A stretch of DNA of 28,453 nt from a virus (UHGV-0259231), one strand, 5' to 3'. Positions 1-27,348 are shown, counted from the stretch's first letter. Program-made: numbers and translations. Notes: generated by a model not told the origin, from the sequence alone.

Positions 1-569
1 GTCGATCCCCTGACAAGGAAATGTGAACCATGGACATCAACGCGTCATAAATGTTTACGCAAGTGCACAATGCACCCTTTCCACTATCAACAAGGAGGAG
101 CAGAAACTGTGTAAATCGTACAATGGTAAGACTTATCAAAAATACAGGTTAATTTTGGTATTTAAACCTTTTTTACTTGTTAGTATGATACAAAGGCTTT
201 CAAAAAAGCTGGGAAATTCAACAACTCTTGGAAATTATGGACTTTGTCCCGCGGCTTTAATCTGACGGCCGCGTTCCTTTTTTGACTCAATTATTGACCC
301 CTTCTCTACGCAACTTCAGTTCCCACCACCAACTTTGCGGCAGTTTCATAGGATGAATGTCTAAAAGAATAATGGTGACCGATAAGAAAACGACTGAATA
401 ACTGCACATTTTCGCTCGAAAGCTTCCTGTCAGATCCATAGCGGATCAAGTGCTGAATGTCACAGTATCGAACAGAAAACAGTGACGATCTAACCCTTCA
501 AGAATATTCTACGATTGTTCTGTTTAGGAAAAGCAAGGCGGGAAGTCAGGAGATAAGTCATTGATAAAG

Positions 570-631
570 TGGCGGAGAGAGGGGGATTTGAACCCCCGGT
601 AGAGTTGCCCCTACTCCGGTTTTCGAGACCG
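570..631 (-). other. attR core: 3'-terminal 62 nt of a tRNA-Ser(CGA) gene (serU-like), lacking the 5' half
   Basis: Minus-strand reading gives CGGTCTCGAAAACCGGAGTAGGGGCAACTCTACCGGGGGTTCAAATCCCCCTCTCTCCGCCA: anticodon loop with CGA, long class-II variable arm, T-arm and CCA end. The sequence expected for the D-arm and 5' acceptor is absent after position 631. Confidence 0.7.
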
Positions 632-847
632 ATGATACAGAGTCGAAAAATCAAAGAGTTAAAAACTTTTCTTGGAATAAATGTCTTAAAATCGTACACG
701 AAAAATCAATAAATTACATAACATTAAAGAAGAATATTCCAAGCCTTCTTGAGGCCACCACCTGTTTTCAGGTGTCATTCAGACGTGATTTACCCCAGAT
801 TGGGTAAGCACGCTTTTTTTCTCAGCTTATTCCGTTTTGCCTGTGTG

Positions 848-875
848 TTGAATAATTCCACTGCAGTTATATAAA
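848..875 (+). promoter_or_regulatory. Candidate sigma70 promoter on the plus strand (TTGAAT, 16-bp spacer, TATAAA)
   Basis: Hexamers at 848-853 and 870-875. The region is AT-rich, so a chance match is possible. Confidence 0.2.
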
Positions 876-929
876 ATCGGTAACGGCTGGAAATCATTCA
901 ATACTCGCACTATCGAAAGTTAACCAGCC

Positions 930-970
930 AGCCGCAGTATCCTATCATGACAAGTTACTGCGGCTTTTTA
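930..970 (+). terminator. Plus-strand intrinsic terminator (10-bp stem AGCCGCAGTA/TACTGCGGCT, 16-nt loop, T-run)
   Basis: Perfect inverted repeat 930-939 / 956-965 followed by TTTTTACTTTTTATATTT on the plus strand. It is convergent with the minus-strand gene that ends at 981. Confidence 0.4.
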
Positions 971-980
971 CTTTTTATAT

Positions 981-1268
981 TTAACGGATCAACATCCAGA
1001 TCAGCAGACACGCCACCACCGGCACAGCAAAATCCATCAGGCTTGCCACATCCCACACGCGCGGATCAAAACCGCCCCACCACGGCATGTTAATCCTCTT
1101 GCCATGCCCAAACATTTCAATCCAGCGATATTCTGCCTGGGTGTGTTCACGCGCAATGAAGAACGTACAACCGGCTATCGCCCCGTAAGCCCAGTTCCCG
1201 GTAAAAAGACCAATCAGTAGCTGCGCAGCCACAGCACAAAGCGCATGAAGGAAAGGTGTTATATCCAT
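981..1268 (-). CDS. Small hydrophobic (multi-pass membrane) protein of unknown function, about 95 aa
   Basis: ORF with ATG at 1268 (alternative ATG at 1274; the ORF-track start at 1283 is TTG). An AGGA Shine-Dalgarno lies about 6 nt upstream. The translation has two to three hydrophobic stretches. Confidence 0.5.
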   Translation of the reverse strand: MDITPFLHALCAVAAQLLIGLFTGNWAYGAIAGCTFFIAREHTQAEYRWIEMFGHGKRINMPWWGGFDPRVWDVASLMDFAVPVVACLLIWMLIR

Positions 1269-1280
1269 TTTCATCCTACC

Positions 1281-1304
1281 CAATAAAACGGGGCGCTCGG
1301 CCCC
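1281..1304 (-). terminator. Intrinsic terminator downstream of the distal fibre gene
   Basis: GGGGC/GCCCC stem with a 5-nt loop, followed on the minus strand by GTTTTATT. Confidence 0.45.
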
Positions 1305-1310
1305 TTGATA

Positions 1311-2351
1311 TTATTTAGACGCAAGCGCCGCCTCAATTGCAGATAATCTTTGTCTTAATTCTGCGTTTTCTTCTTCCAGTGCTGTTATTCTGTCGTCTGA
1401 CTCTCTGGCTACCTGAACAAGCAAGCCAGTAACACCAGAATAATCTACTGTGTAATAACGTTCACCTTCTTCACCTTCCGATCCGCTTGCACCGTCCTGA
1501 TATTTCATTGCGGAACCTACAACTTCTGGGATTGCTTCCAGAGCTTCCTGTGCAATGACACCAGCATAGGGCATACCGTTTTCTTTAAGCGTGTATGTAT
1601 AGCCGTTCATTTTACGGATGCGGTCGGTTGCATTATCGATCACCTGAATGTTGTCTTTCAGATCCCGGTCGGAATGCTGGTTAAATGCGGTGGCATGACA
1701 TGCACCATTAACGCTTAACATATAGGTGTTATCGGTATTTTTCTGCGCATAGAACATATAAGCGCCACCATCAGCACCAACTTCATATACAACCGGACGG
1801 GTAGAGTTACCCCACAAACTAGTAGTAGCGCCAGAATGAGCGGTTCCCTGTGTGTTGATTGTCATGGTTGACCCATGATTGGCATATTTGATTTGTAATG
1901 TGTCTGTGCAGTCAAACTTAATAAGCGCGTTACTTCCCCGCACACCATACGACATGAGACAGTTCCCCATCTTAAGGTAACCATCACTGCCTGGAAAAAT
2001 TAATGTTCCACCGTAAAGATCGCTAAAATCCCAAAAGATACCTTTTGTTCCATTGTGTGTGACAATCCTTGTCATTGTATCTTTTGTACCGTCAATATTT
2101 TTTCTAGTGTACATCTCACTATAAGCGTTTTCGGTTTCTCCTGTCTTATTTGACAAGTGAATCTTACCGCTAAATATAGTTCCAGTGGTCGGCAATGTCT
2201 TTTGATCATAGATTACATTGCAATAACTATTCCATGTTGTTTTATTGTCTACATATGATTTTGTTGCGTAGCTTCCTTGATCGTTTTTTAATTTGCTAAC
2301 GTCGGATTTTAGCGTTTTGATGTCTTCAGGAATTACTGTCGATGTAGCCAT
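1311..2351 (-). CDS. Tail fibre / receptor-binding protein with C-terminal intramolecular chaperone (peptidase S74-type) domain
   Basis: The C-terminal 110 aa (SDRDLKDNIQVI ... GVIAQEALEAIPEVV ... YYTVDYSGVTGLLVQVARE ... coiled coil) fit the auto-cleaving chaperone domain of endosialidase/L-shaped tail fibres. The N-terminal 230 aa are Ser/Thr/Gly/Asn-rich and beta-rich, and the DNA is visibly AT-rich. GGAAG Shine-Dalgarno upstream. Confidence 0.6.
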   Translation of the reverse strand: MATSTVIPEDIKTLKSDVSKLKNDQGSYATKSYVDNKTTWNSYCNVIYDQKTLPTTGTIFSGKIHLSNKTGETENAYSEMYTRKNIDGTKDTMTRIVTHNGTKGIFWDFSDLYGGTLIFPGSDGYLKMGNCLMSYGVRGSNALIKFDCTDTLQIKYANHGSTMTINTQGTAHSGATTSLWGNSTRPVVYEVGADGGAYMFYAQKNTDNTYMLSVNGACHATAFNQHSDRDLKDNIQVIDNATDRIRKMNGYTYTLKENGMPYAGVIAQEALEAIPEVVGSAMKYQDGASGSEGEEGERYYTVDYSGVTGLLVQVARESDDRITALEEENAELRQRLSAIEAALASK

Positions 2352-2360
2352 TTTTCTTCC

Positions 2361-2642
2361 TCACATCCAGCCACGAAGTTGATGCTCAACAGCAACCACG
2401 TATTCATCGAATATTGACGATTTTTTTGCATCATTAATGATGCGCACGTTTACAAAATATCCGTCTTCCTTAACACATACCGGCTCGCCATCTTCGGTAA
2501 GTTCTCCGGTTTCTTTGTACACGTTACCTATCACGTCAATAAGAATATCATCCTGCATCGACTCGTCATCATAATAGCCGGCACTCTCCATAAAGGCCGA
2601 AAAGTCGGCCCTGTCGGCAAATTTGAGTGTTAAATCTTTCAT
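2361..2642 (-). CDS. Acidic 93-aa hypothetical protein, translationally coupled to stf (possible fibre assembly factor)
   Basis: Its ATG at 2642 shares one nucleotide with the Stf stop codon (TAATG), and it sits 9 nt upstream of the next fibre gene. No family recognised. Confidence 0.5.
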   Translation of the reverse strand: MKDLTLKFADRADFSAFMESAGYYDDESMQDDILIDVIGNVYKETGELTEDGEPVCVKEDGYFVNVRIINDAKKSSIFDEYVVAVEHQLRGWM

Positions 2643-4831
2643 TAGATTGACTCCCCCACCTGAGCATCAGTCAATGCCTTGTGCCATATTCTGAAATTCC
2701 TGACATGACCAAATAAATGACGCAACCCGGCTGTAGTCTGGCCTCCAATACGGATAATTGCGGTGTTCTGAATATAGGACCATGTGGCTTTCTTTTCGCT
2801 GGATATACGCCCGTTACTTACTGAGCACGTAGACTGATCTGACTTTACACGCATCCCCATAACCATTTTTTCAAGCGATGCGTTTTCGTTTACCCGTCTG
2901 TTAGCCAAACCTATATCGCAATAAGGAAATCCGTCGTAATCTGTTGAACGACCGAAGCCAAGAATAATAGCCGCTCCGGTTTGATGACCGCCGGTATCAA
3001 AAACACGCGGTGCTGCATTTGGCGTTTTATACCAGTTCTTATGTACCTCACAAAGAACTGTAAAAGGAAGATTATAAAGGTTATTCTTGATTGGGACTGT
3101 CACCATATCGCTTGCGCGAGTGCTTGCAATTATATCAGTTACAATAAATGACGAAGCACTTGATCCACCTTCCACTTGTGGAGTTGCGATATCCAGATAG
3201 TCTCCAGATGCTGTGCCTGAACCTTTTACTGGAGCATATTGAACCATCGCACCAATCATGCTCTCTGTATCTAGTGCATTAATTGTAGCCTGATAGAAAA
3301 TCCAACCAGTAGCCTCATCTTTTACAGCCTTTGCAATAATACGATTTGCTGCACCACCAGTCTTATCAATTACAAGTGTTGATAAATTGAGGTAAGCATC
3401 TCCCAAAAAAGTGTAAGTAGAACCATCATGATGTTCAAATCTTAAACGACACCTTATATTTTCAACATCACTTCTGACACGGCATGAAATGGTCACATAT
3501 TTTTCATCACCTGTGACATCAAATCCTTTACTGCCAGAAACCGTTACGATATTAATCGCACTTGTCTGATCAATAAGAGTATCTTTTACAGTAAATCTCC
3601 CATAAGTAAAATTAAAAGAATCCGTGGATATTTCTGTGAGTTCCAGATTGCCTGACTTATTCCATTTAGATGGATTTGTTGAATTAAGCAGAAGATTAGT
3701 TCTTTGCCCCTCAATAAGCAGGCCATCACGTTCAAATCGCGGCTCGTCAATGGCAGCCTCTGTCAGTACACCAGATTTATTAATATAGGTTGCTTTCGAT
3801 GCGCGTTTAAACTTAACAACCTTGTCACCAGGCATCGTTATTTCGTCGTCGCCAATAACAATCTTTTTATATGATGGCGAAAAGCCCGTAATCATATCCA
3901 GTGAATCGTTAAACGGTATCCACACATCGGGAAGCGGCTGCAAAACTTGTTTATACGGCTCCGCAGCCTGGCTTGCATACTCTCTGGCTGCGTCTTCACT
4001 TGCTTTTGCAGCCGTCTGGCTTGCAGCGGATGCTTTCGCCGAGTTAGCCGCCGCAGTCTCGCTCGCCTTTGCGTTGGTTTCACTGGTTTTTGCAGCTTTT
4101 TGACTGTTGGCTGATGCAGTGGCAGAAGAAGCCGCCGCACTTGCAGAACCAGCTGCGGCACTCTCGCTTTGGGCTGCAGCATCCTGACTGTTTTTCGCCG
4201 CAGTTTCACTGGCTTTGGCATTCGTTTCGCTGGTCTTCGCTGCCGTCTGGCTGGACTTTGCGTTGGTTTCGCTCGTCTTTGCGGCTGTCTCGCTGTTTTT
4301 CGCGTTGGTTTCTGATTTTTTGGCTGCTGTCGCGGAGTTTGCCGATGCAGTCTGTGAGGTCGCTGCCGCCTGTGCGCTGTTAGCTGCATTCGTTTCTGAG
4401 GTTTTCGCCGCGTTCTTCGATGATGCCGCTGCAGTTTCGGATTTCTTTGCCGCCGCTGCGCTCTGAGAGGCGGCTTCGGCGTTGCGTGCCGCTTCTTCCA
4501 CCATTGCCTCAAAACGACGCAATGCCTCCGGCATGACATCATCTTCCGTCATGGCACCGAGAAAATCATTCAGCGTACCTGGTCTGGAACCTTCATAGAC
4601 GGTAATGGTCCCGGCATGTGAAGGCGGAAAACCTTCAACCAGCAGGGTGACGCTGTACTGGCCATACTCAACATCCATGCTGTAACGTCCGGCTTCATCC
4701 GGATTTTCAGAAGCCACCGTGTTCACCAGTACCGTGGTGCTGTTACGCTTTGCCTTCAGTTGAATAGTGCAGTTCTGTATTGGTTTTCCCGCACCATCTT
4801 TCAGCACACCTGAGATTTTTACTGCTGCCAT
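2642..4831 (-). CDS. stf: Side tail fibre protein Stf (lambda-like N-terminus, Ala/Ser-rich repeats, distinct C-terminal receptor-binding domain)
   Basis: The N-terminal 110 aa (MAAVKISGVLKDGAGKPIQNCTIQLKAKRNSTT...) are near-identical to lambda Stf as remembered. A central AAKTSETNAK-type repeat region follows. The C-terminal 430 aa are unrelated to lambda and end in a ...RNFRIWHKALTDAQV motif resembling LamG/ConA-like jelly-roll domains. ATG at 4831 has a GGAG Shine-Dalgarno; the ORF-track start at 4837 is GTG. Confidence 0.8.
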   Translation of the reverse strand: MAAVKISGVLKDGAGKPIQNCTIQLKAKRNSTTVLVNTVASENPDEAGRYSMDVEYGQYSVTLLVEGFPPSHAGTITVYEGSRPGTLNDFLGAMTEDDVMPEALRRFEAMVEEAARNAEAASQSAAAAKKSETAAASSKNAAKTSETNAANSAQAAATSQTASANSATAAKKSETNAKNSETAAKTSETNAKSSQTAAKTSETNAKASETAAKNSQDAAAQSESAAAGSASAAASSATASANSQKAAKTSETNAKASETAAANSAKASAASQTAAKASEDAAREYASQAAEPYKQVLQPLPDVWIPFNDSLDMITGFSPSYKKIVIGDDEITMPGDKVVKFKRASKATYINKSGVLTEAAIDEPRFERDGLLIEGQRTNLLLNSTNPSKWNKSGNLELTEISTDSFNFTYGRFTVKDTLIDQTSAINIVTVSGSKGFDVTGDEKYVTISCRVRSDVENIRCRLRFEHHDGSTYTFLGDAYLNLSTLVIDKTGGAANRIIAKAVKDEATGWIFYQATINALDTESMIGAMVQYAPVKGSGTASGDYLDIATPQVEGGSSASSFIVTDIIASTRASDMVTVPIKNNLYNLPFTVLCEVHKNWYKTPNAAPRVFDTGGHQTGAAIILGFGRSTDYDGFPYCDIGLANRRVNENASLEKMVMGMRVKSDQSTCSVSNGRISSEKKATWSYIQNTAIIRIGGQTTAGLRHLFGHVRNFRIWHKALTDAQVGESI
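3982..4480 (-). repeat. Coding tandem repeat array (about 33-nt units encoding AAKTSETNAKxS motifs) inside stf
   Basis: Repeated GCnnnnAAAACCAGCGAAACnAAnGC-like units are visible on the coding strand. They generate the overlapping alternative-frame ORFs at 3822-4542. Confidence 0.7.
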
Positions 4832-4840
4832 ATCCACTCC

Positions 4841-26313: not shown

Positions 26314-26986
26314 CACTTTGCTTTGAAAATGCCGTCTTTTGTTTTGAACGTGTTCTCATTACAAACAATAAAGCCTCACTATCCAGTCGGTGAAAAATGT
26401 GTTTCATTGCAACCCAGTGACGAGTAAATGTTTTGGACCAGTTTTTAGTTGTCACTCCCGCCAGTAATGCCAGCTCCTGGTATTCATAACCTTCCCCACC
26501 AAAAAGTTCTGCTTTTACTGCCTGCGCCGCCAGCCAGATTAATTTTTTCAGGCGTTCCTGCGTTTTCCCTGCAATTTTTCTGGTACCGGATTGAGTATTA
26601 AATTCATTCCACGCCCACTGTGTTATCGCGATCTGATATTCCCAACAAATACTCCCGCTGTAACACCACAACAACCAGGCTTTATGATGTTCTTCAAGAG
26701 ACAGAACAGCCCGCCGCCACGATGATGTCGAAAACTCAACCGGACTGACCAGAGGAATTGACGTCCCCTTCGCCAGCGATTGCTTTCCCGGGATTGGTGG
26801 ATTATCCCGCGTTATCATTTTTCCAGTCACTTCATCGCGGTACCGGATTTTTTTTCGCCTGTAACGCCCTGTATCGAACATGGCATTCTCTTGCCAGGCT
26901 TCAAGCTGACCTTTTGTTGCCCCACTCAAATCAGCGGTGGCGATAATGAGCTGCTCACGCACAAACTGTAAATACTGGTTATTCAT
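26297..26986 (-). CDS. Q: Late-gene antitermination protein Q (QuuQ / phage 21-82 type)
   Basis: 229 aa, immediately upstream of PR'/tR', the tRNAs and the lysis cassette. ATG at 26986 overlaps the rusA stop (ATGA). Family is inferred from synteny and general resemblance, not a confirmed match. Confidence 0.7.
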   Translation of the reverse strand: MNNQYLQFVREQLIIATADLSGATKGQLEAWQENAMFDTGRYRRKKIRYRDEVTGKMITRDNPPIPGKQSLAKGTSIPLVSPVEFSTSSWRRAVLSLEEHHKAWLLWCYSGSICWEYQIAITQWAWNEFNTQSGTRKIAGKTQERLKKLIWLAAQAVKAELFGGEGYEYQELALLAGVTTKNWSKTFTRHWVAMKHIFHRLDSEALLFVMRTRSKQKTAFSKQSVAKVD

Positions 26987-27348
26987 GCGCACTCCAGTTC
27001 TGTGATTTTTATCCCCAGCCGCCCACCAGGAACGAGCTGACCGCGCACAATATTGATTTCATCTAACTGCTCGTCGTCTATAAGCAGTCCGGCATGCGTC
27101 AGCGCATCCAGTGGTGCCTTCAGGATATTGTCCAGGTCGCGGCGGCGCTTATCCGGTGGCTCTGCAATAATCTTTATCGCCAGCCTTCCGGACAGGCTTA
27201 ATTTCAGCCGCTGCTGGCGAACAATTAGCGCCACATCACGGCGATAACGCTTTCCGGCTTCCGAGATGAAATACGTATTGCCATGACGTCGCCAGTAGGT
27301 ATTCACCGTCGGCGGGTAAGGCAAAACAAATTCTATGCGTTCAGTCAT
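26983..27348 (-). CDS. rusA: Holliday junction resolvase RusA
   Basis: 121 aa; …LPYPPTVNTYWR… and …DKRRRDLDNILKAPLDALTHAGLLIDDEQL… resemble RusA (YPP…N.Y and D.RRRDLDN motifs). Start abuts the upstream stop (TGAATG). Confidence 0.85.
   Translation of the reverse strand: MTERIEFVLPYPPTVNTYWRRHGNTYFISEAGKRYRRDVALIVRQQRLKLSLSGRLAIKIIAEPPDKRRRDLDNILKAPLDALTHAGLLIDDEQLDEINIVRGQLVPGGRLGIKITELECA

Follow-up and report, generated by a model that had tools for sequence, protein, structure and literature searches.

A conserved gene for a predicted three-helix membrane protein accompanies receptor-binding-protein genes in proteobacterial phages and prophages

Across Proteobacteria, a gene of the PHROG 1443 family comes immediately after receptor-binding-protein genes, in the same orientation and often translationally coupled with them, and the link was seen in sipho-, myo- and podoviruses. 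The copy studied here is the last gene of a lambdoid prophage in a 28,453-nt stretch of viral DNA (UHGV-0259231; "the window", to which all coordinates refer unless a locus is named). Its 95-aa product is predicted to be an accessory, non-structural inner-membrane protein with three transmembrane (TM) helices. Our working interpretation, held at a probability of roughly 0.3, is that it may be a late-operon accessory protein of the exclusion or immunity type, by analogy with small phage membrane proteins of that kind.

Results

The ORF belongs to a constrained family without functional annotation

The coding sequence (981-1268, minus strand) runs from an ATG at 1268-1266 to a TAA stop at 983-981, and its product begins MDITPFLH and ends WMLIR. 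RefSeq PGAP annotated the same 288-nt CDS in E. coli SMS-3-5 (WP_021549777.1, 'hypothetical protein'), and the N-terminus M-D-(I/L)-(T/S)-P also begins the homologues in the family alignments. A longer version starting from a TTG (1283) received no support from other copies. The preliminary description had proposed a gene for a small hydrophobic membrane protein of 95 aa, which agrees with an ORF on the minus strand and three predicted helices, but had been unable to assign it to a family. That assignment can now be made: the PHROG 1443 profile was matched at E 8.5e-58 (193.5 bits), residues 6-100 of the 100-aa ORF aligning with positions 1-95 of 97. PHROG 1443 is a phage orthologous group without functional annotation.

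The gene was found by megablast in 1906 of 5426 complete E. coli genomes (median two copies, maximum seven), in 70 of 50,697 phage records, where GenBank labels it 'hypothetical', and in 40 plasmid or phage-plasmid records. From a set of 5.8 billion proteins came 568 relatives, all named 'hypothetical', and an exhaustive HMM search gave 435 clusters at 50% identity; among the best 150 of the 435 clusters there was no fusion, each being a single protein of 63-146 aa. Comparison with ten E. coli copies gave a dN/dS of 0.13-0.42. The profile match, the homologues and the dN/dS values place the ORF far beyond a chance reading frame, and by these comparisons it is a real gene, strongly conserved and under constraint. 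It is at the same time accessory, not essential, since one E. coli copy (NRZ100600, locus L089) has an internal stop and is a pseudogene, since so few phage records hold the gene, and since phage lambda is not known to carry it.

Searches for a known function gave the following: i) scans of the 95-aa protein against Pfam (E<=1), NCBIfam and PADLOC (E<=10) returned no match, the exclusion-family models of Pfam (Imm, SieB and others) and PADLOC included; ii) a Pfam scan of 59 distant relatives returned scattered weak matches to unrelated families, the best at E 0.0013; iii) a sequence-profile search of the 95-aa protein against the PDB returned noise only (E 0.55). One Aeromonas member carries the UniRef name 'Lgt' (prolipoprotein diacylglyceryl transferase); that identity was rejected at an hhalign probability of 0.5% over six aligned columns (RVWD), against a manually entered Lgt sequence. 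As far as these comparisons reach, the protein is in no known exclusion, holin, Gtr or Lgt family. A well-characterised housekeeping homologue or a lack of conservation, which the preliminary description had named as outcomes that would speak against it, did not appear.

A compact fold with one conserved, positively charged face

The AlphaFold2 model of the protein (pLDDT 93.2, pTM 0.77) has helices at residues 4-23, 26-52 and 74-94, and its comparison with solved and viral folds gave no informative match. The HMM and structure searches that had been suggested earlier yielded a family and a confident three-helix model with no counterpart among the solved and viral folds compared. Among 59 members with 28-57% identity to the query, H8, R40, E41, W72 and P83 were invariant and Q44, A45 and E46 nearly so; Y47, R48, I50, R58, P62 and D79 were also more than 85% conserved over 210 members. 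The conserved set as a whole comprises H8, R40-E41, Q44-A45-E46-Y47-R48, M61-P62-W-W-G-G-F-D, W72, D79 and P83, and the invariant residues span four proteobacterial classes, from Alpha- to Deltaproteobacteria.

Because of the hairpin formed by helices 1 and 2, a single side of the membrane holds H8, R40-R48, the Trp-rich loop and the beginning of helix 3. Most of the positive charge is on this side as well: mean K+R over 210 members was 0.55 at the N-terminus and 5.65 in loop 2 (the 35-residue loop between helices 2 and 3), as against 0.05 in loop 1 and 0.80 at the C-terminus, i.e. 6.2 on the conserved side and 0.85 on the opposite side. The C-terminal tail has a mean of 5.7 residues with 0.8 K+R. 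Under the positive-inside rule this bias argues for an N-in, C-out topology with the conserved face cytoplasmic and almost nothing periplasmic, a prediction that rests on the charge count.

The gene is the last before attR, far from the lysis cassette

The attR core lies at 570-631 (minus strand) and corresponds to the 3' part of tRNA-Ser (serU), from the anticodon loop to the 3' end. The segment 300-631 matched 5423 of 5426 complete E. coli genomes, and at prophage-free sites the match ended within the annotated tRNA-Ser; thus the prophage/host junction falls at about 631 and prophage DNA begins at about 632. Host DNA lies to the left of the core (zinT and yodB in SMS-3-5) and prophage DNA to the right. 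The junction is 350 bp from the stop codon of the 95-aa gene, which bears out the earlier placement of the gene at the extreme prophage end, as the last before attR.

On the minus strand, the order 5' of the gene is lambda-type J, lom, stf, a 93-aa gene and a 346-aa fibre gene. The stf gene (2642-4837, minus strand) encodes an Stf-like side tail fibre of 731 aa. It is followed on the same strand by the gene for the 93-aa protein (PHROG 1361 by profile match; 2361-2642), which is the constant partner in the side-tail-fibre cassette, and by that for a 346-aa distal tail fibre (1311-2351), which matched the C-terminal Peptidase_S74 intramolecular chaperone and PHROG 4563. The 93-aa protein may serve the fibre cassette as an adaptor or chaperone; it has no Pfam match, and in some prophages its gene lies directly 5' of the PHROG 1443 gene. 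Within stf, at 3800-4550, there are long Ala/Ser/Thr/Lys-rich repeats with units of the AAKTSETNAK type, where local GC rises to about 56% and long spurious ORFs arise on both strands. The stf gene of SMS-3-5 (L001 8052-9280) is broken by an IS3-family element and that of the window is intact; the SMS-3-5 prophage end is otherwise identical to the window's, so that the window derives from another strain with the same prophage end.

A complete lysis cassette, assigned by ORF sizes and order, lies 23 kb away at 23901-25485 (ORFs of 71, 104, 177 and 159 aa), downstream of a tRNA cluster. This cluster, with genes for Gly-TCC, Thr-TGT, Lys-TTT and Met-CAT head to tail (25778-26087, minus strand), is placed between the holin and a candidate Q ORF (26297-26992), which likely encodes the Q antiterminator. 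The distance between this cassette and the 95-aa gene bears on the idea that the protein is itself a lysis-associated membrane protein made late, i.e. a holin, antiholin or lysis-timing factor. At about 95 residues, with three predicted TM helices and probable co-expression with late genes, it does resemble class I holins such as lambda S; one distant member weakly matches Phage_holin_8 in Pfam (E 0.0036); and in podovirus EC.W1-9 the gene lies 3' of a lyase-type tailspike gene ('eliminase') and directly 5' of two holins, an endolysin and a spanin. However, class I holins are N-out/C-in with a charged C-terminal tail and have an endolysin neighbour, whereas the predicted topology here is the opposite, with a C-tail of only 1-6 residues and no charged tail, and EC.W1-9 is the one context in which a holin adjoins the gene. 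Lambda S has a Met-Lys-Met start, and an in-frame ATG-AAA (1274-1269) gives the window copy a look-alike; this dual start was dismissed as a coincidence of that junction, because it is absent from the other contexts and the Shine-Dalgarno sequence favours the second ATG. Moreover, a strongly conserved polar motif is atypical of holins, and chromosomal copies beside housekeeping genes would be unlikely for a lethal one. A role in lysis is accordingly rated as quite improbable.

The gene ends a mobile side-tail-fibre cassette

In E. coli contexts the PHROG 1443 gene is the terminal gene of a mobile cassette consisting of stf, the ~93-aa gene, an optional distal fibre gene and the gene itself. 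We counted its parts in the closest 80 of 518 IMG/VR loci: stf was upstream in 78 and the 93-aa gene present in 64, while a fibre of the 346-aa type stood between the latter and the PHROG 1443 gene in 27, and the two small genes adjoined directly in two. An insert of ~240 aa occupied this position at 35 loci, 26 of them without similarity to the 346-aa fibre and nine resembling only its first ~30 residues. Of the 80 predicted proviruses, 17 end 12 nt or less from the stop codon of the gene.

What follows the gene varies: sitABCD in Nissle 1917; a tfa remnant and then the pin invertase in NRG857C; a tfa remnant and then an IS1 fragment and cat in BL21(RP); pinR and int in the lambda-like phage Tritos. 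In NRZ100600 (L089 3016-5310) the pseudogene copy is followed, before int, by an opposite-strand reverse transcriptase gene and a SLATT-domain gene, likely an anti-phage defence pair. These genes (sitABCD, the pin invertase and the reverse transcriptase with SLATT) show a slot in which other prophages carry cargo, in agreement with the moron-like position proposed earlier. The tfa remnants beside the cassettes of BL21 and NRG857C point to replacement.

We rejected the possibility that the gene tracks one type of fibre, since the protein is found alike after the 346-aa S74 fibre, after a ~234-aa fibre, with no distal fibre at all, and after P22-type tailspikes and a lyase-type spike. This bears equally on whether the protein could be a tail-fibre assembly factor or a minor virion component of the fibre module. 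The gene constantly adjoins fibre and spike genes, is sometimes translationally coupled with them, and occupies the place of tfa in stf-tfa pairs, with tfa remnants 3' of it. But the protein is by prediction integral to the membrane, whereas fibre assembly is cytoplasmic; next to unrelated fibres and spikes its sequence hardly changes; many phages with these fibre types lack the gene, and an internal stop has made one copy a pseudogene; and chromosomal copies exist without phage genes nearby. A part in fibre assembly or in the virion thus appears very unlikely.

The family extends to other phage types and to cellular chromosomes

The protein is ~80% identical between lambda-like and other phage types, P22-like phages included. 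Beyond the E. coli cassette, the gene was found i) in a circular phage record of 108 kb, 3' of stf and a 92-aa gene and not far from a ParA gene; ii) in the baseplate/fibre operon of an Aeromonas P2/HP1-like prophage, overlapping the stop of the tail-fibre gene by 4 nt; iii) 3' of gpJ in Comamonas; iv) 3' of a tail-fibre chaperone gene on a metagenomic contig; v) in the 236-kb Aeromonas phage ACP1, next to a tail-fibre gene; and vi) within the structural module of a P22-like Aeromonas phage. The gene is not confined to prophage ends, given the P2/HP1-like operon, the 236-kb phage and copies on alphaproteobacterial chromosomes.

At 29 alphaproteobacterial loci the commonest neighbours were housekeeping genes, with no phage genes among them; these neighbours included thiC, cox1, ftsZ and genes for an M13 peptidase, a cyclophilin, DAHP synthase and RNase PH. 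At four loci from Alphaproteobacteria and metagenome-assembled genomes (L062, L071, L072 and L073), ligA (NAD-dependent DNA ligase) is directly 5' on the same strand and no phage genes are nearby. On the Ideonella dechloratans plasmid NZ_CP088082.1 (L084 4001-4594), a prophage encodes a 197-aa fusion of a PHROG 1443 domain (1-90) and DUF5658 (108-189); on one side of its gene is that for a tail-type protein, and on the other are two avd/reverse-transcriptase pairs belonging to a diversity-generating retroelement. The fusion, which itself matches PHROG 1443, came from the plasmid search and is the only one found; its second domain is small, membrane-embedded and uncharacterised. The DUF5658 model (PF18902) matched only the C-terminal half of the fusion and not the 95-aa protein, and no mention of DUF5658 was found in the literature searched.

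Taken with the protein model, these cellular copies would fit a small membrane enzyme, or a cofactor- or metal-binding protein, with a general cellular role that phages would have borrowed as an auxiliary gene, the invariant His, Arg, Glu and Gln residues forming an active or binding site at the membrane-cytoplasm interface. The invariant residues are polar and are kept in four proteobacterial classes, the predicted fold is compact and confident, chromosomal copies sit by ligA, ftsZ, thiC, cox1 and the peptidase and cyclophilin genes, and one member is fused to a small membrane domain. E. coli DgkA is a very small membrane enzyme, comparable in that respect only. We rate a borrowed enzyme or binding protein as unlikely, if worth keeping in view. 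In general terms, a specific molecular activity is suggested by the polar residues that never vary, by the confidently predicted fold and by the existence of chromosomal relatives.

The promoter- and terminator-like sites belong to the fibre cassette rather than to the gene

An AGGA Shine-Dalgarno sequence (1277-1274) lies 5 nt 5' of the ATG and directly 3' of a terminator-like hairpin, GGGGCCGAGCGCCCC + GTTTTATT (1282-1304, minus strand; a 5-bp GC stem at 1304-1290 and GTTTTATT at 1289-1282), which itself lies 3' of the fibre gene (stop codon at 1311-1313). The reported position of the Shine-Dalgarno immediately after a terminator T-run was thus correct. A promoter-like TTGAGG (1336-1331), 17-nt spacer and TAATAT (1313-1308) had also been proposed; it is present inside the 3' end of the fibre gene (1308-1336, minus strand), but it agrees with only eight of 12 consensus positions, scores under the promoter-scan threshold and is not conserved with the gene. 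When seven contexts were aligned, similarity started at the Shine-Dalgarno/ATG and ended at the stop codon, so that only the CDS is common to all, and the hairpin was shared only by Tritos-type contexts. Since the flanks show no similarity, the promoter-like site and the hairpin belong to the 346-aa fibre cassette.

In prophages without the 346-aa fibre, only 10-13 nt separate the gene from the fibre-module gene before it, and there is no terminator between the two. This spacing, or overlap with the fibre gene, indicates that the conserved mode is co-transcription with late tail genes and not an autonomous moron unit. In two respects the gene does look like a moron, being patchily present (70 of 50,697 phage records; 1906 of 5426 E. 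coli genomes) and deviant in composition (GC 52.8%, as against 41.8% in the fibre gene, 42.9% in the 93-aa gene and 36.7% in the flank). A promoter and terminator travelling with it, however, were not found across the seven contexts. The moron reading put forward earlier is supported as regards the prophage end, the GC content and the cargo slot, and is not supported as regards a travelling promoter, the late-gene operon and the sites away from prophage ends.

The same evidence bears on a lysogenic-conversion moron, expressed in the lysogen from a promoter of its own and altering the envelope, e.g. by blocking undecaprenyl-phosphate-linked O-antigen or capsule synthesis at the cytoplasmic face. 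Epsilon15 and phage D3 encode small hydrophobic polymerase inhibitors beside the tailspike, and in P22 the tailspike-to-int slot holds gtrABC; in the P22-like phage Gally the PHROG 1443 gene sits in that slot, between tailspike and int, 240 nt after the tailspike gene. The location by attR and the unusual GC content suit such a moron, as do the conserved face rich in Arg/His, the frequency of the polysaccharide-specific kind among upstream receptor-binding proteins (S74 fibre, P22-type tailspike, 'eliminase'), a Novosphingobium plasmid copy 1.4 kb from glycosyltransferase/LPS-synthesis genes with two other genes between, and the weak promoter-like site, from which transcription would start within the hairpin. 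On the other hand, no promoter or terminator around the CDS is conserved, many contexts show the gene in one operon with late genes or overlapping them, ACP1 is presumed virulent, the commonest neighbours of chromosomal copies do not include polysaccharide genes, and Pfam gave no similarity to GtrA or other conversion proteins. On balance we doubt that the gene is a conversion moron.

On the plus strand, a 10-bp hairpin with a T-run (930-976) abuts the stop codon of the 95-aa gene; it has no U-tract on the gene's own (minus) strand and would terminate transcription arriving from the attR side. Opposite the 3' end of the gene, also on the plus strand, is a promoter-like TTGAAT-18-TAAAAT (848-877), 3' of which come hairpins at 885-929 and 930-965 and then a T-run at 966-976. 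The structure folds at -28.1 kcal/mol (z -4.7 against shuffles), and its sequence recurs 3' of the gene in locus L011 and in no other context. It could encode a small RNA of ~90 nt, or just be a terminator guarding the prophage end; an Rfam scan of 1-3000 gave tRNA-like matches on the attR fragment only and none for 848-976.

Discussion

A tentative exclusion-type role

In the exclusion-type reading, the protein would be made mainly with the late tail operon, in the lambdoid prophage here by Q-antiterminated read-through of the small, weak hairpin, while any synthesis in the lysogen would come from a weak, context-specific promoter. Its site of insertion would be the inner membrane, whether the cell is infected or lysogenic, and there its conserved, cytoplasm-proximal face might bind or alter a universal inner-membrane component, and the membrane would thereby become refractory to the entry of, or damage by, other phages. 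We rank this reading first because a dispensable membrane protein is encoded in the place that elsewhere holds cor or llp, seroconversion genes or defence cargo.

Several considerations nevertheless make us hold it weakly: i) conservation across phage morphotypes and bacterial classes is unlike that of known exclusion proteins, and cellular copies exist; ii) the operon layout disfavours expression in the lysogen, late-operon coupling being a poor arrangement for its protection; iii) with the predicted cytoplasmic orientation, an incoming tail tip would find hardly any of the protein exposed in the periplasm. As judged from the alignments, the conservation is more in keeping with an enzyme, or with a universal target, than with a lock directed at a single ejection machine.

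A more specific idea is that the protein could be a very small, previously unrecognised membrane enzyme or lipid-carrier binder whose His/Arg-Glu/Gln-Ala-Glu cluster acts on a universal substrate at the cytoplasmic face, e.g. polyprenyl-phosphate-linked glycan precursors; phages would have it next to their receptor-binding genes so as to stop or alter synthesis of the surface polysaccharide that the fibres recognise, and Alphaproteobacteria would keep a cellular version. If so, progeny would not be trapped and lysogens would be shielded from superinfection. To this proposal we give only a slim chance. The remaining probability goes to an explanation outside those set out here.

Roughly one in three complete E. 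coli genomes has the gene, in most cases in at least two prophages. Despite this prevalence it has no name and no Pfam model, and the literature searched held no paper on it and no mention of the PHROG 1443 family. For an accessory membrane protein of phages, it is unusually conserved. It could turn out to be a broadly acting exclusion factor, relevant to phage therapy and host-range prediction, or a new small membrane activity. Should it prove one more narrow exclusion protein, the result would be useful for annotation and no surprise.

Comparison with known systems

Like the lambdoid morons lom and bor (Juhala/Hendrix), the PHROG 1443 gene is an extra gene in some relatives, deviant in GC and located at the late-operon end by att, but it has no travelling promoter/terminator pair and moves in a three- or four-gene fibre cassette. 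The searched portion of the text of Mathieu et al. 2020, with its list of lambda morons, does not mention the gene.

The genomic logic is also that of Cor and Llp, i.e. a gene for a small accessory envelope protein beside receptor-binding genes. Cor (phi80/N15/T1) and Llp (T5) are small envelope exclusion proteins encoded by the receptor-binding genes at the end of the late region; they are outer-membrane lipoproteins that block FhuA. The PHROG 1443 protein, in contrast, has no lipobox and three predicted TM helices, and its sequence is constant whatever fibre lies upstream.

T4 Imm and HK97 gp15 are small inner-membrane exclusion proteins, gp15 being a moron inside the tail gene region. P22 SieA is a phage-encoded inner-membrane superinfection-exclusion protein (PMC10883804). 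All three, like the protein predicted here, are small accessory phage inner-membrane proteins outside the virion, yet the PHROG 1443 protein has no sequence or fold similarity to them. Moreover, Imm, SieA and gp15 have a narrow phage range and are poorly conserved, inner-membrane exclusion proteins being usually specific to one phage group and fast-evolving, whereas PHROG 1443 is conserved across proteobacterial classes and phage morphotypes and counts chromosomal genes among its members.
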